Source: a phage
Length of the DNA stretch: 64,000 nt
Sequence record: PZ495249.1
Reading direction: 5' to 3' (one strand)
Part shown: piece by piece, positions 15,159 through 45,364 of the stretch
Numbering within the stretch: the stretch's first letter is position 1
How the letters are laid out: each line of letters starts with the position of its first letter
The notes under the pieces: model-generated
The model's database searches: none
Seen by the model: the letters and a program-made list of their open reading frames with translations, nothing else
Told to the model about the DNA's origin: nothing
Position numbers and translations under genes: made by a program

Positions 15159-15183
15159 AAGGGGCGTAAGCCCCTTATTTTAT
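15159..15183 (+). terminator. rho-independent terminator
   Basis: GGGGC-GTAA-GCCCC stem plus T-run. Confidence 0.55.
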
Positions 15184-15651: not shown

Positions 15652-16722
15652 ATGAAAGTAGGCTTAATTTTCGGTAAATTTGCACCACTGACAGCAGGAC
15701 ATGTCAACTTCATCCGTATGGCAGTAGAGTCGGGCATTGATCGTCTGTATTTGTTCCTGTCTTTCGACCAGAAGTTCAACGACACTCAAACTCCGTGGAT
15801 GCAGAAGCGCCTTGGCCTCACACAACGTTTGTGGGATCTCAAGTCTCTTATCGAAGACTCTGGACTCACTCGCAAAGTGATCGTAGACTACGTGGACGAG
15901 TCCAACATTCCTGGCTACCCAGAAGGTGGTAAGGCGTATGCTGAGTTGATTCGTGCTAAGATCCCCGAAGGAGAGGTGTTGACACACGCATTCTCTTCTG
16001 AGCCGGAGTATACTGCCTACTTCTCTGAGTATTTCCCAGAGGTGGAGCATGTTGTGCTGGATGCAGAGCGCAGCGGAGTAGATATTTCTGCTACACGCAT
16101 CCGTACCAACCTGCGGGACAACTTCGAGTATCTTTCCGAGCAAGCTAAACCTCGCTTTGTCAAGCGTGTGGCTATTATCGGTGTAGAAAGCACTGGTAAA
16201 TCCACGATGACCGAGCGTTTAGCTCACCACTACGCAACAACGTCTACGCCTGAGATCGGGCGGGACATTTGCGAAGAGTTATTCTGTGGTAGTGAATTCC
16301 TAATGGATCGTGAAGCGTATCTCAAAGTTGCTATGGCACACCGTATGGAAGAATATATGCACTCCAACGAGGCACACGTTGTCCACATCTCGGACACCAC
16401 CAACTTGATCACGCACTTCTCCGGTATTTGTTCAGGCAAACTGTATCTGAACGACCATATGTTCAGGGCTTTATCTCGTGAAGAAGCTAACACCTTCTAT
16501 GACCTGGTGTTGTTCCTGTCTCCAGAAGTCGAGTGGGTAGAAGATCCTCTGCGACTGCAAAATACGCCACGGAAACGACTTGACACACATAATTTCCTTG
16601 ATATGATGGTGACTGAACATTATGTCGGTCGTGTTCCTGTTGTTCACATCACGGGTACGGACTATGAAGATCGTATCAACCAGGCTATTAAAGCCATTGA
16701 TAAACTTTTAGCGGAGGGTTGA
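15652..16722 (+). CDS. nadR: NadR-like bifunctional NMN adenylyltransferase / ribosylnicotinamide kinase (no HTH domain)
   Basis: N-terminal nucleotidyltransferase motif GKFAPLTAGH; C-terminal P-loop GVESTGKST; AAAGGAG RBS. Confidence 0.8.
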   Translation: MKVGLIFGKFAPLTAGHVNFIRMAVESGIDRLYLFLSFDQKFNDTQTPWMQKRLGLTQRLWDLKSLIEDSGLTRKVIVDYVDESNIPGYPEGGKAYAELIRAKIPEGEVLTHAFSSEPEYTAYFSEYFPEVEHVVLDAERSGVDISATRIRTNLRDNFEYLSEQAKPRFVKRVAIIGVESTGKSTMTERLAHHYATTSTPEIGRDICEELFCGSEFLMDREAYLKVAMAHRMEEYMHSNEAHVVHISDTTNLITHFSGICSGKLYLNDHMFRALSREEANTFYDLVLFLSPEVEWVEDPLRLQNTPRKRLDTHNFLDMMVTEHYVGRVPVVHITGTDYEDRINQAIKAIDKLLAEG

Positions 16723-16724
16723 CA

Positions 16725-16898
16725 ATGTTTGGAAAACGTCTTAAAGTGTTGGCTACAGAACGAGCAGTACCAAAGCTGGAACTGCGTGAATATGAAATCG
16801 TGGTGCGCCACGGCAAAGAATGGATTGTTGACGGGTACGGCGGGTTTGTTCCGGTTAAAGAACTCCACCTTGCTAAGGTGACATTCGAAAGACTCTAA
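16725..16898 (+). CDS. small protein (57 aa)
   Basis: hand-called ORF filling the gap between nadR-like and the next gene. Confidence 0.4.
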   Translation: MFGKRLKVLATERAVPKLELREYEIVVRHGKEWIVDGYGGFVPVKELHLAKVTFERL

Positions 16899-16907
16899 GG
16901 AGGGTTT

Positions 16908-17093
16908 ATGAAAGTTGGAGATGTGTTGCGTTGTACTTACTCCGTGGACAGTGATTTCACGGTAGGAAATCTCTATGAGATCGTGTCTTTTGATAAGGAT
17001 GGTGATCCTATTTTGAGGGATAACGACGATTACACTGGCGGTATCGGTGTTGTCATGAATGGCACTCGTTGGCGTTTCGAGGAGGTTGAATGA
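16908..17093 (+). CDS. small protein (61 aa), tandem paralog A
   Basis: track ORF; shares MK.GD.(L/V)RCT..(S/D)D....G.LY pattern with next gene. Confidence 0.5.
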   Translation: MKVGDVLRCTYSVDSDFTVGNLYEIVSFDKDGDPILRDNDDYTGGIGVVMNGTRWRFEEVE

Positions 17094-17281: not shown

Positions 17282-17305
17282 TTTAATCCTAAAGAGGAGA
17301 TGAAC

Positions 17306-17998
17306 ATGAACTTATACGTTAAATCCACCTGGACTGACTTCTACGGCTGGAAACCTTTGGAATATCTTTGGTTGGTTATCTGTACTGCCAGTATCGGTGC
17401 GATCTCTATTGCGATGAACAGTACGCTGGTTGAGTTTATCTCCTCAGTAACAGGGATTGTAGGTGCAATCCTTGTGGCAAAGGGTAAAATTTCAAGCTAC
17501 TGGTGGGGTGTCATTGCTACGGCACTCTACGCATGGATCTCATACAAATACCAACTCTTCGGTGAAGCGATCATGTACACACTCGTGTTCCTCCCGATGC
17601 AGTTCTGGGGTGCAGTGGTGTGGAGTCGAAAGCTGAATGTAAGTGGAGATCGTGCAGATGTTATCAAGAACTACCTGACGACAAAGCAACGCATTTGGGT
17701 GAGCGTCGGTACGCTGGCAGCAATTGGGCTTTATGCCTTGTTCGTAGCCGAACTGAAAGGTAGTATGCCTGGTTTGGATTCTGCAACTGCAATCCTGTCC
17801 ATTCTGGCTACCACACTTATGATGTACCGTTATGCTGAGCAATGGTATGTTTGGGTGTTGGTTAACATCGTGGCAGTGGTCATGTGGATTCAGGCTACAC
17901 TACACCATGAAGGTGGTGGCGCAGCAGTGCTGGCAATGTGGGTAGCATTCCTGCTTAACTCTCTGTTTGGAGTGTACCAATGGCGCAAGCAAAGTTAG
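17306..17998 (+). CDS. pnuC: PnuC-family nicotinamide riboside transporter
   Basis: multi-helix membrane protein with PnuC-like W/Y-rich pattern; AGAGGAG RBS (alternative ATG at 17300). Confidence 0.8.
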   Translation: MNLYVKSTWTDFYGWKPLEYLWLVICTASIGAISIAMNSTLVEFISSVTGIVGAILVAKGKISSYWWGVIATALYAWISYKYQLFGEAIMYTLVFLPMQFWGAVVWSRKLNVSGDRADVIKNYLTTKQRIWVSVGTLAAIGLYALFVAELKGSMPGLDSATAILSILATTLMMYRYAEQWYVWVLVNIVAVVMWIQATLHHEGGGAAVLAMWVAFLLNSLFGVYQWRKQS

Positions 17999-18503: not shown

Positions 18504-18881
18504 GTGAAAACAACGATTGAAGTTGATTTAAAATGGTATACAATGCGTCAGAATAACTCTGGTGGTTACTTCATCCGTAATGATGAAGTGAGAGACACGG
18601 TTATCATCCAAGCAACATCACCAGAGGATGCACAGAGTCGTGCTGATCGTATAACCTGTGGAAATGACTCATACTGTGAATGCTGCGGTGAACGTTGGTA
18701 CACTTGGTTTAGCTCAACAGATGGTGAAGAAGTACCAAGTTTGTACGGTACACCAATCGACGAATTAGATCGTGAATCTTTCCGTTATGATGCAGTGTTG
18801 TACTACTTTGACGGAACCAAGCGTTTCTATAAGTTTGGTACTGGGTTCGTACCTTACGAACAACTGGAGGATGATGAATGA
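18504..18881 (+). CDS. hypothetical Cys-containing protein (125 aa), GTG start
   Basis: track ORF; AAGGAGGG 4-5 nt before GTG. Confidence 0.55.
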   Translation: MKTTIEVDLKWYTMRQNNSGGYFIRNDEVRDTVIIQATSPEDAQSRADRITCGNDSYCECCGERWYTWFSSTDGEEVPSLYGTPIDELDRESFRYDAVLYYFDGTKRFYKFGTGFVPYEQLEDDE

Positions 18882-19240
18882 TTAAGTGGCTATTGGTGAT
18901 CGCGCTGTTTTTATCTGCTGGCGCGAATGCGCGGGAAGGATTCAAAGTGGTTGCCAATGGCACTAAATTCTTTACCTGGTATGGTGGTGTAGCTTTATAC
19001 CAAGATGAAGGTAAGGACATTCGTTGTAAGCTGGACAAGAGTACAAAATCAGTGGATCAGTGGGGCGATGCCTTTAAAGCCACTGGCTTTTATTGTGGGA
19101 AGGATCTCTTCATCCTTGTCAAAGAATACATGGACATAGACCGCCAACTCTTCATCACTCTCAATCCTGCGAAATTTGAAGAAAGGAAAACCTACAAAGT
19201 AGATTTGTTCCTGGAGTACAAAGAGGACGAGAAGAAATGA
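18878..19240 (+). CDS. secreted protein with signal peptide (120 aa)
   Basis: track ORF; N-terminus MIKWLLVIALFLSAGANA. Confidence 0.6.
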   Translation: MIKWLLVIALFLSAGANAREGFKVVANGTKFFTWYGGVALYQDEGKDIRCKLDKSTKSVDQWGDAFKATGFYCGKDLFILVKEYMDIDRQLFITLNPAKFEERKTYKVDLFLEYKEDEKK

Positions 19241-19614
19241 AAGTTTTAAATTTTTACCACCTTGGCAAGGTGATTCCAGAGGGAGCGACATACATTGGAC
19301 GTGCAATGCCCCACTTCGGGCTTAAAGCCTCCAAGTTTGCCAACCCTTTTAAGCTACAAGATGGAGAGCCAAGAGGCTCAACAATTCAGCGATACAAAGA
19401 ATGGTTGTGGGAACAGATACGTTCTGGTAAGATTACCCTTGAGGATTTACTGGAATTGGAAGGTCAAAACCTTGTTTGCTTCTGTGCTCCTCAAGCTTGT
19501 CACGGAGATGTGTTGGTTGCAGCCGTACAATGGGCGAGAAGAGAATGGGACAAACGTCACCCGCCATTTAAAGATGACTATTGGGTTTGGGAGGAAAATT
19601 ATGGTAACAGTTAA
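19237..19614 (+). CDS. hypothetical protein (125 aa) with CxC..CHGDVL motif
   Basis: track ORF; ATGA overlap. Confidence 0.6.
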   Translation: MKVLNFYHLGKVIPEGATYIGRAMPHFGLKASKFANPFKLQDGEPRGSTIQRYKEWLWEQIRSGKITLEDLLELEGQNLVCFCAPQACHGDVLVAAVQWARREWDKRHPPFKDDYWVWEENYGNS

Positions 19615-19831
19615 AGTGTTTGCCTATAAAGATGATTTGGGGATTGACTGCGAAGATTTCGTGGTTAATGATGGCATACTCTTTCCATTGGGAGAATCCA
19701 AGGATGAAGAAGATCGGAAAGCAACGGCTATCCGTTGTGTGAAAGGTCACTTTTACGGCTTAAATGCCGATCAGAACATGGACAAGAAAGCAGTCCTGAT
19801 TGCAACCTATACCTTCGAGGAGGAAGTATGA
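19601..19831 (+). CDS. hypothetical protein (76 aa)
   Basis: track ORF 19295..19831 trimmed to Met 103 with GGAGGAAAA RBS. Confidence 0.5.
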   Translation: MVTVKVFAYKDDLGIDCEDFVVNDGILFPLGESKDEEDRKATAIRCVKGHFYGLNADQNMDKKAVLIATYTFEEEV

Positions 19832-20202
19832 ATCAAACAACACAAGATATTGATATCTTCAAACTAACCATGCTGGCAGATCGTCCAGCCACCATTTACC
19901 ATGATCTGGATAAGAACGATACCTTCATCTACATCGGTGCAGAACGTTTCACAATTCCGCATGGTTCAATGGCACTCTCCCGACCAGGAGATCACCCACT
20001 GAAAGAAAAATTCAGAGGCTTCGGTTTCGCACAGGATGTTAAACTGGATGGTTGGATCAAAGTGTTCCAGATGGATGAACACTACCTGGTGATGTTCGCC
20101 ACAGAGAAGTTCACGGAGCAACCAGGGGAACCTGATGCAGTGAATGATATCATCCTGCTCAAAGCAGGTAACGCACTGGATGACGTTAAAGCCCTAAGCT
20201 AA
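19828..20202 (+). CDS. hypothetical protein (124 aa)
   Basis: track ORF 19735..20202 trimmed to Met with GGAGGAAG RBS. Confidence 0.55.
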   Translation: MNQTTQDIDIFKLTMLADRPATIYHDLDKNDTFIYIGAERFTIPHGSMALSRPGDHPLKEKFRGFGFAQDVKLDGWIKVFQMDEHYLVMFATEKFTEQPGEPDAVNDIILLKAGNALDDVKALS

Positions 20203-20211
20203 GGAGGCAAG

Positions 20212-20721
20212 ATGTTTTTTGATGTTTTCTCACCTTTGGTTGAATCTTCAAGCCAAGCGGTTATTTACCCTGAGTGGGATGAACGTGAAGAGTGGATTGA
20301 AAACCACGATTACGATCCGACAAATGTAAACTGGTGTAGCCTGGATGTTCATAACTTCAAACGTGATACAGGCATCTTAAAATATTACGCTTTCTACACG
20401 GTGGATAACATCTACGAATACTTTGTGTTCCGTAGTTTGATTATCCATCTGAACAAACTTGGTGGTCTGGAGGGTAAAGGTAGTTTCACTTTAGGCCACT
20501 ACATCCCCTTTAAGAAAGGGGGCGTTCACTTCCCCAGTAATTGGATCATTCAAACTCAACGTGAGAACTCTCACGCTGGAGATAAATTGCCGGAGAAAAA
20601 AGAAAAATGGACATGGGAAGAGCAGAAAGATTATATCTTCAAGCACTTACCAGAAGATTTGAACGGTGAGTATGCAGAAATCACTATAAAACGTATGTTG
20701 CAAGTGATGGACTTTTACTGA
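20212..20721 (+). CDS. hypothetical protein with possible HNH-like (His-Me finger) motif
   Basis: track ORF; AAGGAGG RBS; GHYIPFKKGG...N....REN pattern. Confidence 0.55.
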   Translation: MFFDVFSPLVESSSQAVIYPEWDEREEWIENHDYDPTNVNWCSLDVHNFKRDTGILKYYAFYTVDNIYEYFVFRSLIIHLNKLGGLEGKGSFTLGHYIPFKKGGVHFPSNWIIQTQRENSHAGDKLPEKKEKWTWEEQKDYIFKHLPEDLNGEYAEITIKRMLQVMDFY

Positions 20722-20730
20722 GGAGGAACA

Positions 20731-21192
20731 ATGAGTAAACGTTTTGGACGAAACCAAAAACGCAAAATGCGTGAAGCTCTGGCTGCACAGCAAGAACAAT
20801 TAAATAAATTGCAGAGAGATCTTGACAACAGTCGTAATGAGAATAGAATGGAGCGCGAATGTCTTGAAATGACATGCGAACTCCTGGGAGAATATTTCCC
20901 AACCCTCATGCCTAAAACCAAAGATGTAAATTACCTTCCAGTACAATTAGCTCGTACATCTGGTGAAGATATCTACAATATGATGGCGACTATTCACACC
21001 TTACGAGGTATTGAGTATCGTGCTGACCTCGACAGATTACGAGATACTATGTATATCCGTGTCTCTACACCGGAAGGTGGTACTGTGGCATATAACTGGC
21101 AGTTTAGAAATCTGCCCTCACACATCATGGAGCGAGTATTGGAACGAGATCTGATTCCCATGTTAGTGAATGAAATTAAGAGAGGAATGTAA
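20731..21192 (+). CDS. coiled-coil protein (153 aa)
   Basis: track ORF; GAGGAGG RBS. Confidence 0.6.
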   Translation: MSKRFGRNQKRKMREALAAQQEQLNKLQRDLDNSRNENRMERECLEMTCELLGEYFPTLMPKTKDVNYLPVQLARTSGEDIYNMMATIHTLRGIEYRADLDRLRDTMYIRVSTPEGGTVAYNWQFRNLPSHIMERVLERDLIPMLVNEIKRGM

Positions 21193-23006
21193 TGGCTAAA
21201 AGCGAACTAAGTTTTACACCGACTGACGAACAATTTGCAATTGAAGGTGCGTTCAAAGAGAACCGATTCACCACCATTCAAGCTAAATCTGGATCTGGTA
21301 AAACTTCCACATTGTATATGCTGGCAAATGGTACGGATGATAAGATCCTGTATCTGGCATTTAACAAAAGCATGGCAGAAGAAGCCCGTCGCAAGATGCC
21401 GGATAATGTAGAATGCAGAACATTGCATTCCATATGCTACCAGCAACTGGATCAGTCTCTGCGTCACAAGCTGACACGTCCAGAAGGTGCATACGTTAAC
21501 GTGGCAGGAACGGGTAACGAGATTGCCAAGAAGTTCAAAATCAATAACTTGATTGATAAAAATGGGAAAACTCTGCTCACTCGTGCAATGATTGGTTTGA
21601 TGATCAAGCAAACTGTGGGTAAGTTTGAATTCTCCGACGATGCTCACCTGGGGCGTAAACACTTCCCTACTGTGCATCTGGCAGATATTAAACGCAAAAA
21701 CATCAATGAAAACAAACTGATTTCAGAGGTGGTTACGTATGCTAAACAGCTTTGGCGTGAACGTATTGATCCTAAGTCAGAAACAATCATGACTCACGAC
21801 ACCTATGTGAAACTGTTTGAATTGTCGGGTAAAGACTTGGGATACGATATCATCTTTGGTGATGAGTTCCAGGACGTTAACCCTGCGTTCCTGTCCATCC
21901 TGCGTAATGCCAAGGCAGCTAAACGCATTGTGGTGGTAGGGGATGAATTCCAGAGTATCTATCAGTTCCGTGGTAGTCAGAACATGATGAAAGAAACCTC
22001 CACCTACGGTGTAGAACTTCCTCTGACAGCATGTTTTCGATTCGGTCCGAAAGTGGCAACTATCGCCAACATGATCCTGGAAGATAAAGAACCGCTGGCT
22101 CACCCGCTGGTAGGTAAAGGTTATGATACAACGGTAGGCAGTTATGTCTCTGATATGGTGGATTACACCAAGCCGTATACAATCATCTTCCGTAAAAACC
22201 TGACACTGCTGATGGAAGCAATGGATCGTATCGCTGATGGTGAGGAGATTATCATCAACGTTGACACCAAAGACTTTATCTCAATGGTGGATAGCGTGAA
22301 CGCTCTGCGTCGTGGTGATATTGAGAAGGTGAAACACGAAACAGTGTTACCATATGCAAACTGGGATGAGTTTGTAGAGTGCGCTGAGAGCGATCCTGAC
22401 GCGAAACGACTGCTTAACGTAGTTGTGAGTGGGAAAGCGAATACAATCGCTCACACCCTGCGTACACATCGAAATTCACCTACTGCGAAGGTGACGCTCA
22501 CTACGGCTCACAAGTCAAAAGGTCTGGAGTGGGATCAGGTAGTTGTTGCTAACGACTTCCCTTCCAACTATGATAAGAAAACAGGGGAATGGGTGGGTTT
22601 GGAAGAAGCAGAGCGTAACCTGTTGTACGTAGCCCACACTCGTTGTATCAAATGCTTACAGTGGAACAGCACTGTTCAAGAGATTATTGATATCAGGGGT
22701 GTAGCGCAGGAGAAAACTGCGCCCCCAAAGGAGAAGCCGCTTAAAGGCGGCATCCCCATCGAAAATGTTCGCTTAGGCGTGTTTGGTGCTGGCTGTACGA
22801 CAGCCAGTGATATCAAGTGCTTCGTAGCAGATAGCTTCGATGGTAACGATAACCACCTCCAGGCTTACGAAAGTTGGCTTGAAGATGGTGACGGTGAATT
22901 CCTGGGAGAGATTGATTTGATGCCGGACTTGTCCCGTAGCAATGACCTCTTAGGACGCATCGAAAGAAAGATAGCAATGGAAAACTATGACGGAGATACC
23001 TGTTAA
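21192..23006 (+). CDS. UvrD/PcrA-like superfamily 1 DNA helicase
   Basis: Walker A AKSGSGKT; Walker B FGDEFQD; helicase C-terminal motifs; 604 aa. Confidence 0.8.
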   Translation: MAKSELSFTPTDEQFAIEGAFKENRFTTIQAKSGSGKTSTLYMLANGTDDKILYLAFNKSMAEEARRKMPDNVECRTLHSICYQQLDQSLRHKLTRPEGAYVNVAGTGNEIAKKFKINNLIDKNGKTLLTRAMIGLMIKQTVGKFEFSDDAHLGRKHFPTVHLADIKRKNINENKLISEVVTYAKQLWRERIDPKSETIMTHDTYVKLFELSGKDLGYDIIFGDEFQDVNPAFLSILRNAKAAKRIVVVGDEFQSIYQFRGSQNMMKETSTYGVELPLTACFRFGPKVATIANMILEDKEPLAHPLVGKGYDTTVGSYVSDMVDYTKPYTIIFRKNLTLLMEAMDRIADGEEIIINVDTKDFISMVDSVNALRRGDIEKVKHETVLPYANWDEFVECAESDPDAKRLLNVVVSGKANTIAHTLRTHRNSPTAKVTLTTAHKSKGLEWDQVVVANDFPSNYDKKTGEWVGLEEAERNLLYVAHTRCIKCLQWNSTVQEIIDIRGVAQEKTAPPKEKPLKGGIPIENVRLGVFGAGCTTASDIKCFVADSFDGNDNHLQAYESWLEDGDGEFLGEIDLMPDLSRSNDLLGRIERKIAMENYDGDTC

Positions 23007-25956: not shown

Positions 25957-25960
25957 TTGA

Positions 25961-25986
25961 AAGGGGCGAAAGCCCCTTTCTTGTTT
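25961..25986 (+). terminator. rho-independent terminator
   Basis: GGGGC-GAAA-GCCCC stem plus TTTCTTGTTT; after ATPase gene. Confidence 0.6.
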
Positions 25987-26804: not shown

Positions 26805-27464
26805 ATGACAATCAAACACATCTCTTTTGACGTATGGAATACCCTGATCACTGCTAATCCTCGTTATGCTTACGAGCGTACAGAAATTATTTCTTACTTT
26901 GGCGGAGTAGCTCCAGAAGAGGCAGATGCTGCCTATGCACACGTCAAACGTGTGTTGGATATGAATGCTGAACACATGTTGTGTGGTGATCAATATCACG
27001 CATGGTGGGCGTTGGGTAGACACTTGGGTGTAGATCGAAAATCAGCAGAGCAGATGAAAAAGTATTCTGAGATGGCTTTCCTGGTGAATCCACCACACCT
27101 GAGTATGGATTTGGTTGACCAACTGATTAATCTGGCGATGGATTATGAGTTGAGCATTAAGAGCAATACCAACTTCATTCCTGGATATATTCTGGCACAG
27201 GCTGTCGGTTTTGATCGTATGCCCTTCTGGGCTTTCATGCACTTTTCTGATAACTGGGAAATGTGTAAACCTGATAAACGCTTCTTTGACCAGACAGTTC
27301 TTCGATCTTACAATCGCCAGCTTCAACCTGACGAAGTGTTGCACATCGGAGATAGTGAAATTTTTGATGGGAAATGTGTTGACGCAGGATTTAATTTCTG
27401 TCACATTAAGAACCCACAAGACCTGTTAGAGAAACTGCAAAAAGGAGAAATCATCAATGCGTAA
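26805..27464 (+). CDS. HAD-superfamily hydrolase-like protein
   Basis: track ORF 26784..27464 trimmed to ATG; motif I ISFDVWNTLI (atypical second position), motif III KPDKR, motif IV GDSEIFDG. Confidence 0.65.
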   Translation: MTIKHISFDVWNTLITANPRYAYERTEIISYFGGVAPEEADAAYAHVKRVLDMNAEHMLCGDQYHAWWALGRHLGVDRKSAEQMKKYSEMAFLVNPPHLSMDLVDQLINLAMDYELSIKSNTNFIPGYILAQAVGFDRMPFWAFMHFSDNWEMCKPDKRFFDQTVLRSYNRQLQPDEVLHIGDSEIFDGKCVDAGFNFCHIKNPQDLLEKLQKGEIINA

Positions 27465-28290
27465 CCAGAAACAACACTTCGCCCATGTCTTTAGCGACCT
27501 GACTGTTGCTTGTTTTAATACTGCCGACTACTCACGTCTGAAATTCGGTAGTAATCAAGCTGCGAAGCGTATGGGACGTAAACTGGCAGAGAGCTTCTAT
27601 GAAGCCCACAAACTGCGTCTGTTGAACGAACAGTTCGTGGTGATACCTTCGCCTTACAACTACGTTAAAAACGCAGCTACGGTGTTGTCAGAGCATTTTG
27701 TAGACCATCTCAACTATCTGATGAACCGTATGGGTGGTGCTTACCCAATTGAGTGGGATATCATCCATCGTAAGGTAAGTTACATTAATGATTACGGCTT
27801 CCTGAGTAAGGAAGATCGTAAGGCTCTGATCGATGGCGACACGTTCTCCATCAATAAAGACTTTTGGGGCAACAAGAATCTGATCTTCATTGATGACGTG
27901 AATATCACAGGAACCCATGAGGATAAGCTGATTGAGATCCTGGATGCAGAGAATGTAACTAACGACACATTTTTCCTGTACTTTGCCAAGTATAACGGCA
28001 ATGAGGCAAACACCGAAGCGGCGCTGAATTTCAGCGACATTAACAGTGTCTCTGCATTTGTGCAGATGATCAAGGATGAACCAGATGCCAAGTGTTTGGT
28101 ACGTCCAATCAAATATCTGATGAGCCAGAGTGAGATCACATTTAAGGTGGCACTCAGCCAGCTTCCGCTATCTTATGTTGAAGCACTCTACTTCGGCTGC
28201 CTGGCGGAAGGTTACAACAGCATTGAGAAATATGAAGAGAACTTTGAGTTCTTGGAACACTTCTTTGAAAGTAACATCTTGAACAAGTAA
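27457..28290 (+). CDS. type I phosphoribosyltransferase-fold protein
   Basis: PRPP-binding-loop-like LIFIDDVNITGTHEDKL; AAGGAGAAA RBS. Confidence 0.65.
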   Translation: MRNQKQHFAHVFSDLTVACFNTADYSRLKFGSNQAAKRMGRKLAESFYEAHKLRLLNEQFVVIPSPYNYVKNAATVLSEHFVDHLNYLMNRMGGAYPIEWDIIHRKVSYINDYGFLSKEDRKALIDGDTFSINKDFWGNKNLIFIDDVNITGTHEDKLIEILDAENVTNDTFFLYFAKYNGNEANTEAALNFSDINSVSAFVQMIKDEPDAKCLVRPIKYLMSQSEITFKVALSQLPLSYVEALYFGCLAEGYNSIEKYEENFEFLEHFFESNILNK

Positions 28291-28299
28291 GGAGAGAGA

Positions 28300-28857
28300 A
28301 TGCTAAGAGAGATTAAAGAAATATGGGCTTCTGATGCAGGACGTATTGCAGTATCTGCTGATGGTACATACGAAGTGATATTTAAACACATCACCAGGGT
28401 AGATGATGAGGGAGGGGTGTTTGCTCTGGTTGAAAGCAACATGCGTGATGGTGGTATCTTCAGTGATTTTGCTATTATTGGTGGGCGTCAGAAAATGTTT
28501 TGGAAATGCGAATATGCCAAGGAGTTAGACTATCCCGAAATGACACTGGATATATCCGCAGCAGTACATGCCAGTCGTTATGTTAATCAACCTCGTGGTG
28601 TATTTGAGGTAATGGCTTATCTCACTTCCGAAACCGGAGAATGTGCAGATTGGCTGGTAAACCCTGATCGTCAGAAAGAAGATCTCTTGGGAGAGTGTGC
28701 TGACGTTATTATCTGCGCATTGGACCTTGCACTGATGCACAAGAAGTCAACCAGTGGTCTTGATGGTCAGGAACTGGCAGACGAAGTGATCAGTCATCTC
28801 AATGATCTGCTGAAAGTTAAAGCTGAGAAATGGTTGGATAAACATGCAGCAGATTGA
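28300..28857 (+). CDS. hypothetical protein, possibly MazG-like helical NTP pyrophosphohydrolase
   Basis: track ORF; AAGGAGAGAGA RBS; ECADVIICALDLALMH helix. Confidence 0.55.
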   Translation: MLREIKEIWASDAGRIAVSADGTYEVIFKHITRVDDEGGVFALVESNMRDGGIFSDFAIIGGRQKMFWKCEYAKELDYPEMTLDISAAVHASRYVNQPRGVFEVMAYLTSETGECADWLVNPDRQKEDLLGECADVIICALDLALMHKKSTSGLDGQELADEVISHLNDLLKVKAEKWLDKHAAD

Positions 28858-29332
28858 ACCTATTCAATACCGAGAAGGAGATCTTCTTGTCGCAGCTTCG
28901 GAAGGTGAAGTAGATGCGATTGCGCACTGCTGCAACTGCTGGAACACAATGAGGAGCGGCATTGCTCCCAAGATTAAGGCTAAATGGCCTGATGTGTACG
29001 CCGCAGATTGTGCAACTATTAAAGGCGACAAGTACAAACTTGGTGGCTACAGTAAAGCTGTAGTTGAGGATGGTTTCCTGACTGTCTACAACCTGTACGG
29101 ACAGTACGGGGATAGTAAACGAGATCAAGGCATTCGTGACCTGAATTACAATGCCATCTACGATGCACTGGATGCGATGGGAGCAGACCTGGTAGCCAAT
29201 GGTGCAAGACGTGTGGGTTTACCCCTGATCGGTTGTGGCTTGGCTGGAGGTAAGTGGTCTGTCGTTGAGGCCATGATCAAAGAAACTCTGACGCTGAGAG
29301 GCTTAGAGGTAATTGTTTATCAATTGAAGTAA
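28844..29332 (+). CDS. macro-domain (ADP-ribose-binding/processing) protein
   Basis: GDLL...VDAIAHCCNC and GLPLIGCGLAGG motifs typical of macro domains. Confidence 0.7.
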   Translation: MQQIEPIQYREGDLLVAASEGEVDAIAHCCNCWNTMRSGIAPKIKAKWPDVYAADCATIKGDKYKLGGYSKAVVEDGFLTVYNLYGQYGDSKRDQGIRDLNYNAIYDALDAMGADLVANGARRVGLPLIGCGLAGGKWSVVEAMIKETLTLRGLEVIVYQLK

Positions 29333-34268: not shown

Positions 34269-35059
34269 GCGAGAAAATTAGTCTGGTGAAACGTCAGGAA
34301 CAACTGGTAATCAGCCTGAAAAAGAAAAAGATTGCACAGATCGTACTGCGCGTTGCATCTGCACTGGATATCTCCGGTAGTATGCACAGCCTATATCGTA
34401 ACGGGACTGTTAGCGATTTCGTTGGTAAACTCCTGCCGTTCGGTATGCAGTTTGACGATAACCAGCAGATCGATATGTGGGCGTTCAACAACTACTCTTC
34501 TGAACTGCCGCCAGCTACCGCTGACGTGTACGATGACTATGTAGGTAAATGTATGCGTAACGTATCCATCAATGGTGGCACGAGCTACGCACCAGTTATC
34601 CAGGCGATCTACGACGAATACTTTGGCTCTACGCCAATGAAAACTGTATCTCGTGAAGTTGAGGTACAAGAGCAGCGTCCGGTGAGCGGTTTCTTTGCCA
34701 AACTGACAGGTAAAACTGAAACCGTTACTGTCAAGAAAACGATCACAGAACAAGTACCAGATACCTCTGCGCCTGTGGATACCACACCTGCAATGGTGTT
34801 CTTCCAGACTGATGGTGAGAACAATGACGAATCCGCAGTACGCGCTGTACTGAACCGTAACAAAGGTAAACCTATCTACTGGTTCATGGTTGGTGTTGGT
34901 AATGCTCGCTTTAGCTTCCTGAAAGCTCTGGCAAATGAATACGATAACGTAGCTTTCATCGGCATTGATGACCTGGATCTGTCTGACGAGCAACTCTATG
35001 ACAAACTGCTGTCTGATGAGTTTGGTCAGTGGGTTGAGAAAGTAGGTGCAAAAAACTAA
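34265..35059 (+). CDS. von Willebrand factor A domain protein (TerY-like)
   Basis: MIDAS motif LDISGSM; vWA fold pattern; directly upstream of TerD. Confidence 0.75.
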   Translation: MSEKISLVKRQEQLVISLKKKKIAQIVLRVASALDISGSMHSLYRNGTVSDFVGKLLPFGMQFDDNQQIDMWAFNNYSSELPPATADVYDDYVGKCMRNVSINGGTSYAPVIQAIYDEYFGSTPMKTVSREVEVQEQRPVSGFFAKLTGKTETVTVKKTITEQVPDTSAPVDTTPAMVFFQTDGENNDESAVRAVLNRNKGKPIYWFMVGVGNARFSFLKALANEYDNVAFIGIDDLDLSDEQLYDKLLSDEFGQWVEKVGAKN

Positions 35060-35164
35060 AAATAGTTGTTGACTTACCCGAAGAAATACGTAGAATAGAT
35101 TACATCAAAGGGGAAGAGCGGTTCTTCCCCCCAGTAAATGAAAACAGAAAGAAGGAGAACATAC

Positions 35165-35767
35165 ATGTCTGAGAAAATTTCCCTGAAAAAAGGTTCCACC
35201 GAAAAGATCTCCCTGAAAAAGATCGCACCTCTGCTGAAAGAGATTCGTCTGGAATTCTCCTGGAAATCATCCACTAAACTGGATCTGGACGTAAGCGCAC
35301 TGGTGTGCCGTCATAATGCCTCTGGTAATCCAGAAATGCTGTCTGCCCGTCACCTGGTTTGCTATGCAAACAAAGTTGATCCAGAGCGTTCAACCTTCGC
35401 TGGCGAAGATGTTCGTGATGGTACTGGCAACCTGGAGCAGATCGATGTTACTCTGAGTAAAATCTCCCAGAATGCAGATGAAATTGCATTCGTGATCACC
35501 ATCGACGATGAAACTGGTCAGAAGCGCCTCGGTCATGCCTCCGAAGGTATGCTGAAAATCTTCGACGCAGAACGTAACGTCGAGATCCTGGACTTTGACT
35601 TCCTTGCACCGGAAGTTGCTGGTAACACCATCTGTCACGTAGCTTCGCTGGTTCGCGAAGATGGCGAATGGAAACTGAAAGCCTACGGTGTTGGTAAAGC
35701 AGGTATGGATATCTGTGATGTGGTGGTAGCATTCGGTGGTGACGTCAACTGGTTTGACTGCCCGTAA
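35165..35767 (+). CDS. terD: TerD-domain protein
   Basis: track ORF 35138..35767 trimmed to Met with AGAAGGAGAA RBS; TerD pattern ISLKKG..LDLDVSAL..GEDVRDGTG..EWKLKAYGVG. Confidence 0.8.
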   Translation: MSEKISLKKGSTEKISLKKIAPLLKEIRLEFSWKSSTKLDLDVSALVCRHNASGNPEMLSARHLVCYANKVDPERSTFAGEDVRDGTGNLEQIDVTLSKISQNADEIAFVITIDDETGQKRLGHASEGMLKIFDAERNVEILDFDFLAPEVAGNTICHVASLVREDGEWKLKAYGVGKAGMDICDVVVAFGGDVNWFDCP

Positions 35768-42778: not shown

Positions 42779-45364
42779 ATGGGAGCATTTACTTTCGACA
42801 TTGAAAGTAACAACTTGCTTAATGATGAGAGTGTGGATTACCTGTCAAGTCCTTATCGACTGAAAGACAGTTTCGAGATGCACTGTATTGTATGCGAGAG
42901 TCATGACACCGGAGAGATTATTGCTTTCCACGATGGAGACAAGTATCACTTCGATGGTCGTCCTTACGTAGAGACTGACGGGAAATACACTTACAGCCTG
43001 TTAGAATACGAACATCAGGATTACACCCATTTTCCAATGAGCGCATTCCGAGACTTCGTTAAAGGCACTGGTGTATTTGCCAACAAACCTCAGTACAAGA
43101 TTACGAAAGTAGTTGGTCATAACATTATCAACTTTGACTTGTTAGCCATTAAACTCTACTTTAAAATGAATTACAGCGTGAAATACAATACTTGGGATAA
43201 TCAGGATGTAGAAATCTGTGATACCATGATCCTGAGTAAAGTGCTGAACCCTGACCGTTTCGGTGGTCATAGCCTGGCGGAATTATCCAGCAAGGCAGGT
43301 GGTGATGTTAAGCTTGACTTCCGTAAAGATATTCCGGTTGAAGATCGATTCAAAACGTTTGCAGCAGACATGCTCTATTACTGTATTTACGATAACAAAT
43401 CGAACACCGCCGTATATAAATATCTGATGGAAGAATGGGGAGACTACGATAAATGGGCGGAACCATTTATTCTTGAACAACGTATTGCTGATATTATCAC
43501 TCGTCAGGAACACCGTGGCTTCGCTTTCAATATGAAACAAGCCGAAGAGAATATAAAAGATCTTGATTCTAAGATGGAAGCGTGTAGACTTGAGGCTGAA
43601 CCTATTCTTCCTCCGAAACCTGCAACGAAAGGTTATCTGAAAGACTTCATTCCGCCTAAACTCCAGTTTAAGAAGAATGGTGATCCAACGAGTAACATTA
43701 CGAAGTTTGCAGCTAAGCATGGTGGTGAACTGGTTGAACGTGAAGATGGATGGTGGTTGATCGCCTTGGATAAGGAAATGAAACTTCCTATCTCCAGTGA
43801 AGAGCCAATCTGTGAACCTACTGTTCCGGCTACACTGAACGACACGACACACATCAAGAACTGGCTGGTAGGATTAGGCTGGAGTCCTTCTGAGTACAAA
43901 GATAAAGACATTACGTTGAAGTCTGGTACTAAGATTAAAAAGGACGAGGCGCAGATGGAGAAAGCGATTCGCGATTACGTGGATCAAACTTTAGCATCAA
44001 ACTTCTGTCAAGATCGTTGTGACCACCTTGAATGTACGCCTGAAACTCTTGAGTGGAAGCTGCGTGACCGTATTGCTAAGGCAAAAGGTAAAGGTGTGAA
44101 GGTATTGACTAACCCATCATTCACCAAGGGGCAGGAGAAAGAGATTTGTCCTAACTTGGCTGAACTGGGTGAGAAGTTCCCGTATGCTACCCAGATCGTG
44201 GAATACCTGACGTACAAACACCGTCGAAACTCTATTCTCGGTGGTGGTGCAGATTGGGAAGATGATGAAGAGGATCAGGAATACAACAAAGGTTATCTTG
44301 CAGCAGTAAGGGCAGACGGGCGTATTCCAACGCCAGCGGCAACGTGTGACGCTGCTACTTCTCGTATGAAACACCGTCTTGTTGCTAACATTCCTCGTGT
44401 AACCTCTCTATACGGTTTCCAGATGCGTAACATGTTTGGTGTAGAGGTTCCGGCATACTTCCAGATTGGTTATGACTTTGACTCACTTGAGGCGAAGATT
44501 GAATCACATTACTGCTGGAGATATGAAGCAGAGCCGCATGAATATTGTAACGCTCTTCTGTTAGAAAAGCCGCACGATGTTCACTCAATGATGGCACGAC
44601 GCATTACAGAAACTATCGGACGTAAGTTTGAACGTGCTCCGGCTAAATCTGTTAAGTATGGTATCACATACGGCGCTCAGGCTGCGAAGGTGGCTAAGAC
44701 AATCGGTAGTGATATGCACACAGGCCAGATGGTTTATGATGCATTCTGGGAAGCTGCAAAGCCTCTCGCATTACTGAAAGAACGTCTGCATGACTTCTGG
44801 GTTAAAACAGGTAAGAAATACATTCTCGGTATCGACGGACGTAAAGTGCCTACCCGTTCTGCTCACGCTATCCTGAACTCACTTTTCCAGAGTGGCGGGG
44901 TAATCTGTGCGAAACGTGCAATGGTGATTTACGACGACCTGATCGAAGAAGAAGGGCTGGCAGTTGACTTCTTTGTTGACGATTGGAAAAACAAATCCTT
45001 CGTGCAGCAAATGATCGCTTACCACGATGAAGCACAACTTGAGGTTACTCGTGACCTGGTTGAGTTCAAATGGTTCTCCAAAGAATCTCTGGGCTGGATT
45101 CAAGTTGAGGATGAGAAAGAGCAGGAACGAATCGACAAAGAATGTATGGCTAAAGTAAATGCGTGGAAAGCTGAGGAAGAAACTCGTACTGGTAAGATCT
45201 GGGCTAACGTACACGAATCTCCGAAAGGTGGTTGGTTTACTGGCTACAGTCGTGCAGGTGAACTGGCATCCATCGCAGTTAAGAAAGCAGGTGAATTCTA
45301 TGGCCTGAACGTAGAACTGACAGCAGGTTATGACTTAGGTAATTCCTGGGCGTCCTGTCACTGA
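42779..45364 (+). CDS. family A DNA polymerase with 3-prime to 5-prime exonuclease domain
   Basis: Exo motif FDIESNNL; polymerase motif B-like KSVKYGITYGAQ; HDEAQ motif C; 861 aa. Confidence 0.85.
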   Translation: MGAFTFDIESNNLLNDESVDYLSSPYRLKDSFEMHCIVCESHDTGEIIAFHDGDKYHFDGRPYVETDGKYTYSLLEYEHQDYTHFPMSAFRDFVKGTGVFANKPQYKITKVVGHNIINFDLLAIKLYFKMNYSVKYNTWDNQDVEICDTMILSKVLNPDRFGGHSLAELSSKAGGDVKLDFRKDIPVEDRFKTFAADMLYYCIYDNKSNTAVYKYLMEEWGDYDKWAEPFILEQRIADIITRQEHRGFAFNMKQAEENIKDLDSKMEACRLEAEPILPPKPATKGYLKDFIPPKLQFKKNGDPTSNITKFAAKHGGELVEREDGWWLIALDKEMKLPISSEEPICEPTVPATLNDTTHIKNWLVGLGWSPSEYKDKDITLKSGTKIKKDEAQMEKAIRDYVDQTLASNFCQDRCDHLECTPETLEWKLRDRIAKAKGKGVKVLTNPSFTKGQEKEICPNLAELGEKFPYATQIVEYLTYKHRRNSILGGGADWEDDEEDQEYNKGYLAAVRADGRIPTPAATCDAATSRMKHRLVANIPRVTSLYGFQMRNMFGVEVPAYFQIGYDFDSLEAKIESHYCWRYEAEPHEYCNALLLEKPHDVHSMMARRITETIGRKFERAPAKSVKYGITYGAQAAKVAKTIGSDMHTGQMVYDAFWEAAKPLALLKERLHDFWVKTGKKYILGIDGRKVPTRSAHAILNSLFQSGGVICAKRAMVIYDDLIEEEGLAVDFFVDDWKNKSFVQQMIAYHDEAQLEVTRDLVEFKWFSKESLGWIQVEDEKEQERIDKECMAKVNAWKAEEETRTGKIWANVHESPKGGWFTGYSRAGELASIAVKKAGEFYGLNVELTAGYDLGNSWASCH

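Follow-up and report, generated by a model that had tools for sequence, protein, structure and literature searches.

What does the open reading frame at positions 20212-20721 of this phage DNA encode, and is it a mobile element or a settled gene of its phage? A preliminary description had read it as a possible HNH-like nuclease of the His-Me finger type, free-standing and perhaps a homing endonuclease or a factor for host-DNA degradation. We analysed the whole 64,000-nucleotide stretch that holds the reading frame (hereafter the window). The reading frame was confirmed, running from ATG to TGA over 169 aa behind a Shine-Dalgarno sequence, and the nuclease-like protein is indeed free-standing (Table 1). 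The gene is part of an extended, densely packed run of + strand genes for nucleotide and DNA metabolism, and DUF4326, helicase, RNR and MazG genes are the metabolic genes found near it. The upstream PHROG 8284 neighbour was not conserved beside the HNH-like gene in other lineages. The downstream PHROG 20923 ORF was absent from the corresponding position of Klebsiella phage FKP3, in which the helicase begins 10 nt past the HNH-like gene, and this 153-aa ORF may represent the insertion of a small gene. Inside it, at 20822-20849, there is also a strong sigma-70-like site (TTGACA-16-TAGAAT).

Table 1. Features of the HNH-like gene and its surroundings, in window coordinates.
Feature	Position	Strand	Remarks
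Terminator-like hairpins (GC-rich stem, then T run)	15159-15176; 25959-25980	+	strong; flank the + strand block that holds the HNH-like gene
Promoter-like sites	16580-16607; 16719-16747		10-11 of 12 positions matching
PnuC-like nicotinamide mononucleotide transporter	17300-17998	+	E 9e-39; upstream, same strand block
DUF7296 protein	18504-18881	+	upstream, same strand block
DUF4326 protein	19237-19614	+	upstream, same strand block; FKP3 equivalent labelled 'NrdA-like' by PHROG-based annotation
Upstream neighbour, PHROG 8284	19828..20202	+	function not assigned in PHROG; likely start is an internal ATG (M32 of the listed ORF)
Shine-Dalgarno sequence AAGGAGG	20201..20207	+	5 nt upstream of the ATG; shares bases with the upstream ORF's stop codon (20200-20202)
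CDS of the HNH-like protein, 169 aa	20212..20721	+	ATG start, TGA stop; read from the sequence
N-terminal helical region, residues 1-90	20212..20481	+	predicted helices 8-18, 22-31, 51-61 and 64-84 (AlphaFold model)
N-terminal region, family-conserved residues	20212..20481	+	R25, Y34, R51, Y58, D65, Y68 and E69 (family alignment)
Predicted HNH / beta-beta-alpha-metal core, residues 92-124	20485..20583	+	family alignment, AlphaFold, profile-profile alignment
C-terminal helices 135-144 and 152-168	20614..20718	+	AlphaFold; conserved K132, W133, Q138, Y141 and Y169 nearby (family alignment)
Downstream 153-aa ORF, PHROG 20923	20731..21192	+	"unknown function"; between the HNH-like gene and the helicase
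UvrD/Rep-type SF1 helicase	21192..23006	+	conserved downstream neighbour in Stephanstirmvirinae only

The window region shares ~80% DNA identity with Klebsiella phage phi1_175008, and a hypothetical protein of FKP3 (Justusliebigvirus, Stephanstirmvirinae) matches the window protein at 87% identity; as judged by similarity, the window is from a Justusliebigvirus-like phage of the Stephanstirmvirinae. Using tblastn, we found full-length homologs in 424 phage records, at one place per record, with identities of 53-87% in Stephanstirmvirinae and about 36-45% in Ounavirinae (Sf14, SUSP1 and Felix O1 relatives); a few Straboviridae, such as Ci1 and LPCS28, also carry a homolog. Since full-length homologs were found in 424 records with one copy each, the gene is, on comparative grounds, real and under selection. 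The homolog is named 'hypothetical' in every annotated match listed. The protein belongs to PHROG 3500 ('unknown function'; E 1e-66) and is equivalent to Felix O1 p229 and SUSP1 agp073 (AVU07_agp073). In addition, an exhaustive HMMER search over 1.84 billion representative proteins returned 14 clusters, all of them from the protein's own family, and no canonical HNH protein, and a second indexed search with the family profile gave only 4 further proteins. By these searches, PHROG 3500 is a small phage-restricted family that lies beyond the reach of standard models. Several Stephanstirmvirinae-like genomes carried odd host labels, namely seven 'Campylobacter phage' genomes (e.g. C3), Acinetobacter phage vB_AbaM_ABPW7 and Pseudomonas phage PsgM04F. 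Identity to the window proteins is 57-84% for the genes of these genomes, the same level as in the listed E. coli phages, and the host assignments of these relatives may be mislabelled.

The gene was present in 133 records (E <= 1e-40), compared to 134 records with the adjacent helicase (at least 60% identity). Judging from these counts, the gene is essentially universal in Stephanstirmvirinae, and the presence/absence polymorphism in related phages that had been proposed as a check was not seen. The gene lies directly upstream of the UvrD-type helicase in, for example, ESCO13, REC and vB_EcoM_01, its position is unchanged in FKP3 and phi1_175008, and it is conserved at full length in the second subfamily, Ounavirinae, at about 40% identity. 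Taken together, these results indicate that the gene is fixed, in one copy, in Stephanstirmvirinae and Ounavirinae and is not a selfish homing endonuclease.

The motif GHYIPFKKGGVHFPSNWIIQTQREN was located where the preliminary description had put it, and the pattern quoted there (GHYIPFKKGG...N....REN) was found at residues 95-119. It runs from G95 and H96 through P99, G103-G104, H106 and N110 to N119, with H96 encoded at 20497-20499 (cac), N110 at 20539-20541 (aat) and N119 at 20566-20568 (aac). When the 64 kb window was translated in all six frames, the strict pattern H..P...GG.....N........[NH] was found a single time, compared to 0.005 times per shuffled window; it was defined post hoc, after the motif had been seen, and thus shows only that the motif is not compositional noise. 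Across 22 family representatives, with identity down to 28%, R25, D65, H96, G103, G104, N110 and Q138 were invariant, and G95, P99, H106, W111, Q114 and N119 were conserved in at least 90%. N119 was kept in 21 of the 22 and lost in P0032, and the residue before H96 was Gly in 20, Ser in P0032 and Asp only in P0038. Because its residues are invariant or at least 90% conserved in this alignment, the motif is the most constrained part of the protein. The family alignment held no conserved cysteines, and Q114 and R117 stand at the positions of the second CxxC pair. Furthermore, the E. coli McrA HNH core (HHVIPLSSGGADTTDNCVALCPNCH) has exactly the same spacing, H-x2-P-x3-GG-x5-N-x8-N, and the distances of 14 and 9 residues also equal those separating H840, N854 and N863 of SpCas9. 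Outside the motif, residues 21-68 (stretch EEREEWIENHDYDPTNVN) weakly resemble a helix of Staphylococcus protein A domains. A PDB sequence match to the protein A repeats (E 1.8e-4) was judged to be chance, its E value being summed over 5 weak repeats, and a PDB sequence match to Cif in the family profile search was judged spurious.

We then compared the family with HMM collections and with profiles of known nucleases. Neither Pfam nor NCBIfam gave a match for the window protein at E <= 1. At relaxed thresholds, the secondary HMM matches of family members were nearly all to HNH models, and all of them fell on the motif. For the window protein, these were phrog_9645 (E 0.016) and phrog_9508 (E 0.027); for P0038, they were phrog_9645 (E 1.5e-5), phrog_6050 (E 6.6e-5), Pfam HNH (E 0.033) and HNH_5 (E 0.027); and for the Sf14 homolog, they were phrog_2214 (E 2.3e-5) and NCBIfam IscB (NF040563; E 5e-4). 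The divergent members P0038 and P0037 reached PF01844/PF14279 at E about 0.03, under the gathering score. When the family was aligned by hhalign to 23 McrA-type PF01844 proteins, the score was 25.5 (P 0.0018), and the alignment matched H96 to the catalytic His, GG to GG and N110 to N. In 200 column shuffles of the McrA-type comparator, the score never rose above 18.3 (mean 10.9, sd 2.0). In addition, hhalign to a separate alignment of 24 SpCas9-type HNH domains gave 40 ungapped columns (score 21.9, P 0.01) in the same register, pairing H96 with H840, N110 with N854, N119 with N863, D124 with D868 and P127 with P871; the SpCas9 HNH query sequence had been checked against PDB (E 1.7e-88). The hhalign probabilities of these two alignments were low (15% and 4%).

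For the window protein, AlphaFold (pLDDT 85, pTM 0.83) predicts a strand at residues 92-96, a loop, a strand at 111-115 and a helix at 116-121, and for the Felix-like homolog P0025 (pLDDT 81, pTM 0.79) it predicts strands at 90-94 and 109-113 and a helix at 114-120. In the window protein model, H96 closes strand 1, N110 stands just before strand 2, and N119 lies on the helix and is followed by G123-D124. The loop between the strands carries P99, G103-G104 and H106, and residues 101-110 of it are of low confidence (mean pLDDT 61). The arrangement predicted by both models is the beta-beta-alpha-metal topology of the HNH / His-Me finger superfamily. In Foldseek searches of BFVD, the first match beyond the protein's own family was an Aeh1 'HNH endonuclease' (E 0.036, probability 0.99), the next was an uncharacterized protein of Vibrio phage nt-1 (E 0.041), and about half of the later matches to rank 50 were HNH-annotated phage proteins. 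Against PDB, neither model gave a significant Foldseek match (best E 0.56 and 0.97), and for both models the non-significant matches were enriched in Cas9-HNH, Cas8-HNH and Gme HNH. The flanking helices (residues 1-90 and 135-168) are family-specific and have no solved relative.

The HNH reading holds because five independent lines agree, namely conservation, the McrA/Cas9 register, the profile-profile score, the make-up of the weak HMM matches and the predicted structure. Sequence and model together thus support a nuclease-like protein of the HNH type (His-Me finger) that is very divergent and has no cysteine ligands, in line with the preliminary assignment. The superfamily features present are the invariant His at the end of strand 1, the Asn before strand 2 and the Asn/His on the helix; those absent are the acidic or His ligand of a DH, HH or EH pair, which not every member of the superfamily has, and an above-threshold match to curated HNH models. 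Like classical HNH domains (PF01844; the E. coli McrA C-terminal domain), the phage protein has the core spacing with H or N at its last position, the shared hhalign register and a predicted beta-beta-alpha fold. However, it lacks the CxxC...CxxC zinc site, has Gly in place of His/Asp before the catalytic His, ends its motif in Asn and not in His, and falls below Pfam detection; unlike in McrA, its core is flanked at both ends by helices of its own, and there is no domain that reads methylated DNA. The HNH domains of Cas9 and IscB (SpCas9 about 775-909) are likewise cysteine-free, with an H...N...N triad followed by an 'xD-x2-P' tail, and the Sf14 homolog gives a weak match of about 100 residues to the IscB model, scoring 19 bits where the cut-off is 175 bits. 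The phage protein differs from Cas9 in being a stand-alone protein of 169 aa without RuvC or guide-RNA machinery, and the equivalent of D839, a Mg2+ ligand, is missing from it. HNH proteins are very common in phages, and the present one is a new form, cysteine-free and non-mobile, encoded at a site where a nuclease is no surprise. In the course of the Cas9 comparison, a 2.3 kb contig of a 'Proteobacteria bacterium' metagenome-assembled genome (JAPLFV010000035.1) was found to encode a 99% identical SpCas9 HNH domain reading DVDAIVPQ, which is the engineered substitution H840A; this is almost certainly contamination of the assembled genome by a laboratory construct.

What, then, could such a protein do? 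We assign a probability of roughly 55% to the reading that it has a divergent cysteine-free HNH core (about residues 92-124) set in family-specific helices, nicks or cuts DNA in a metal-dependent manner and is the product of a fixed accessory gene that does not home. By analogy with His-Me nucleases, the protein is most likely an accessory metal-dependent DNA endonuclease; the analysis establishes the gene, its conservation, the HNH-type motif with its predicted fold and the non-mobile distribution, and we infer catalytic activity, metal use and substrate. The gene would be co-transcribed with the nucleotide- and DNA-metabolism genes around it, and its product would act in trans. H96, at the end of strand 1, would be the general base that activates the attacking water, as in McrA, Cas9-HNH and other His-Me nucleases, and N119 on the following helix would hold one divalent metal, Mg2+ or Mn2+. 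N119 might be the only ligand that the protein supplies, an arrangement known from I-PpoI and Serratia nuclease, or alternatively H106, D124 or D65 might assist it, and N110 and G103-G104 would brace the hairpin loop. The enzyme would then nick or cut DNA. As the substrate, we would guess first at DNA of the host or other non-self DNA, which would be degraded or nicked for nucleotide salvage or host shut-off, and this role would be dispensable in laboratory hosts. Host-DNA nicking or degradation for these ends is the leading candidate function; denA and denB of T4 are likewise dispensable. An accessory role fits best because the putative nuclease is conserved but dispensable and lies in a metabolic gene block.

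Previous work included a homolog in a CRISPRi-ART transcriptome-wide screen, in which SUSP1 agp073 (phrog_3500) scored -0.29 and was called 'Not Fit' (PMC11879866, supplementary files 8, 16). In the same screen, the DNA polymerase (agp046), an exodeoxyribonuclease and RNR alpha were called 'Fit', and the primase/helicase and the DNA ligase were also called 'Not Fit' (PMC11879866). Because the calls for the primase/helicase and the ligase point to false negatives in the screen, the call for agp073 is weak evidence. The protein most likely acts alone, since its neighbours differ completely among lineages and the helicase is unmatched in Ounavirinae: no neighbour was conserved across three lineages (window, Sf14 and Ci1), and in Ounavirinae the helicase gave no match at E <= 1e-50 and is not adjacent to the gene. 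Nucleotide-metabolism neighbours elsewhere are NrdD/NrdG, PRPP synthetase and NAMPT in Sf14 and SUSP1, and NAMPT in Ci1. A link to NAD salvage, drawn from NAMPT/PRPP synthetase near the gene in Sf14, SUSP1 and Ci1, was dropped; the FKP3 copies lie about 70 kb away. An accessory endonuclease would give PHROG 3500 a testable functional label, in a family that stands as 'hypothetical' in more than 400 sequenced phages, among them Felix O1, the phi92/Justusliebigvirus group, the BASEL phage Bas61 and SUSP1; several of these are being considered as candidates for phage therapy. The unusual make-up of the putative active site, with no zinc and a Gly before the catalytic His, makes the protein a compact candidate for a new enzyme that nicks or cleaves, and the gene offers a way into the question of what these phages do with the DNA of their host. 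The annotation would be useful for more than 400 genomes; the protein is otherwise of an ordinary kind.

The alternative that survives best, although we consider it unlikely, is a catalytically dead HNH fold retained solely for binding, be it to DNA, to RNA or to a partner; it might then serve as a regulator or assist the UvrD-type helicase as a cofactor. In McrA, Cas9 and T4 endonuclease VII, the position just ahead of the catalytic His holds a metal ligand, and the site could be degenerate because Gly replaces this usual Asp, His or Glu and the zinc cysteines are absent. A dead fold is also consistent with the failure of the curated HNH models, with the knockdown of the SUSP1 homolog without a phenotype and with the position of the gene next to the helicase in Stephanstirmvirinae. 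However, Gly95 alone is no argument for a dead site, because I-PpoI and Serratia nuclease are active His-Me nucleases with a single Asn as protein metal ligand and because lambda Rap also reads A-G-H-Y at the motif registered by hhalign. The invariance of H96 and N110 and the retention of N119 in all but one of the representatives, at identities down to 28%, form the pattern expected of a live site, and they argue for a live and presumably catalytic one. Furthermore, a function as helicase cofactor does not fit Ounavirinae, in which the helicase is neither adjacent nor matched at E <= 1e-50.

The main alternative to host-DNA degradation is a structure-specific endonuclease, analogous to T4 endonuclease VII or lambda Rap, that would debranch recombination or replication intermediates before packaging; we rate it slightly below the dead fold. 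It would suit a core single-copy gene for a protein of about 170 aa in large myoviruses, and PHROG-based annotation of the whole FKP3 genome gave no Holliday-junction resolvase, endonuclease VII, RuvC or RusA. Lambda Rap/NinG (PF05766) and T4 endonuclease VII are similar in size to the phage protein and have non-mobile phage housekeeping roles, lambda Rap also has Gly before its motif His, so that its A-G-H-Y resembles the G-H-Y of the family, and phrog_1035 'endonuclease VII' was weakly matched by P0038 (E 4e-5) and by the Sf14 homolog (E 5e-3). Against these points, both known enzymes have zinc cysteines, and the phage protein has none. The T4 gp49 family (PF02945) showed no profile similarity, since hhalign to 23 of its homologs aligned 4 C-terminal columns at the null-level score of 14.0, and Pfam Endonuclease_7 matched none of the 22 representatives. 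The comparison with lambda Rap/NinG was not significant (13 columns, only the GH motif aligned, P 0.32); it used one sequence, as the NinG loci retrieved from IMG/VR were all at least 98% identical and yielded no usable profile. In addition, the gene lies in a metabolic block and not in a late block, and the SUSP1 knockdown gave no fitness defect, although a sole debranching enzyme would be expected to matter and the screen has false negatives.

A reading that we hold to be more doubtful than either of these combines several elements: a fixed, cysteine-free HNH 'weapon' with a one-ligand site, conserved in Stephanstirmvirinae and Ounavirinae, would selectively nick or degrade non-self DNA (the host chromosome, defence nucleic acid or competing mobile elements), would be paired in Stephanstirmvirinae with the helicase of the next gene downstream as a two-gene helicase-nuclease, and would leave phage DNA spared through one of the many DNA methyltransferases of the phage. 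Lower again, and improbable, is a counter-defence or inter-phage nuclease directed against retron msDNA or against plasmid, prophage or competing phage DNA. Such a function would account for a gene that is conserved although the phage can apparently do without it in a laboratory strain poor in defences, and that moves alone between lineages, including a few Straboviridae (Ci1, LPCS28), without a conserved partner. However, PADLOC returned nothing relevant, we found no report on this family (PHROG 3500) in the literature, and papers on retron Eco2 and on Zorya/Druantia touch on HNH and these phage groups solely in other connections.

A free-standing HNH homing endonuclease, which would cut a cognate site in genomes without the gene and spread by recombinational repair, is very improbable: the ORF is small, stand-alone and HNH-like, as are I-HmuI and the annotated 'HNH endonuclease' genes of FKP3, and its phage group is rich in homing HNH genes (about ten annotated in FKP3, among them one ahead of the DNA polymerase, one that interrupts the terminase and one lying between NAMPT and PRPP synthetase), but it is fixed, single-copy and syntenic, as set out above, and has no extra DNA-binding module (NUMOD, AP2, IENR1 or HTH; Pfam, E <= 1). 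The mobile HNH gene of FKP3 at 34516-35169 and its 'endonuclease' at 16139-17089 have no counterpart in the window, which is the pattern expected of mobile genes and one that the HNH-like gene does not follow. A stand-alone phage HNH protein is thus not always a homing element, and the present gene appears to be a fixed accessory gene.

Some further observations concern mobile genes and annotation in these phages. The window holds a 185-aa ORF at 28300-28857 (+), without a Pfam match, between a Zot-like gene (27457-28290) and a phosphatase-like gene (28844-29332); the same slot in FKP3 holds the 217-aa annotated HNH endonuclease at 34516-35169, and by this comparison it looks like a variable, mobile-gene site. 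In addition, the FKP3 'HNH endonuclease' at 43572-44174 is 87.5% identical to window ORF 35138-35767 (+), which has a TerD domain (Pfam TerD, E 1.5e-28), and this FKP3 annotation is probably wrong. Finally, the helicase match was split in two over about 2.76 kb, compared to about 1.7 kb, in VEcB, ECGD1, vB_EcoM_PD211 and phiWec187, which suggests an insertion of about 1 kb (an intron, intein or homing gene) inside the helicase of these four phages.
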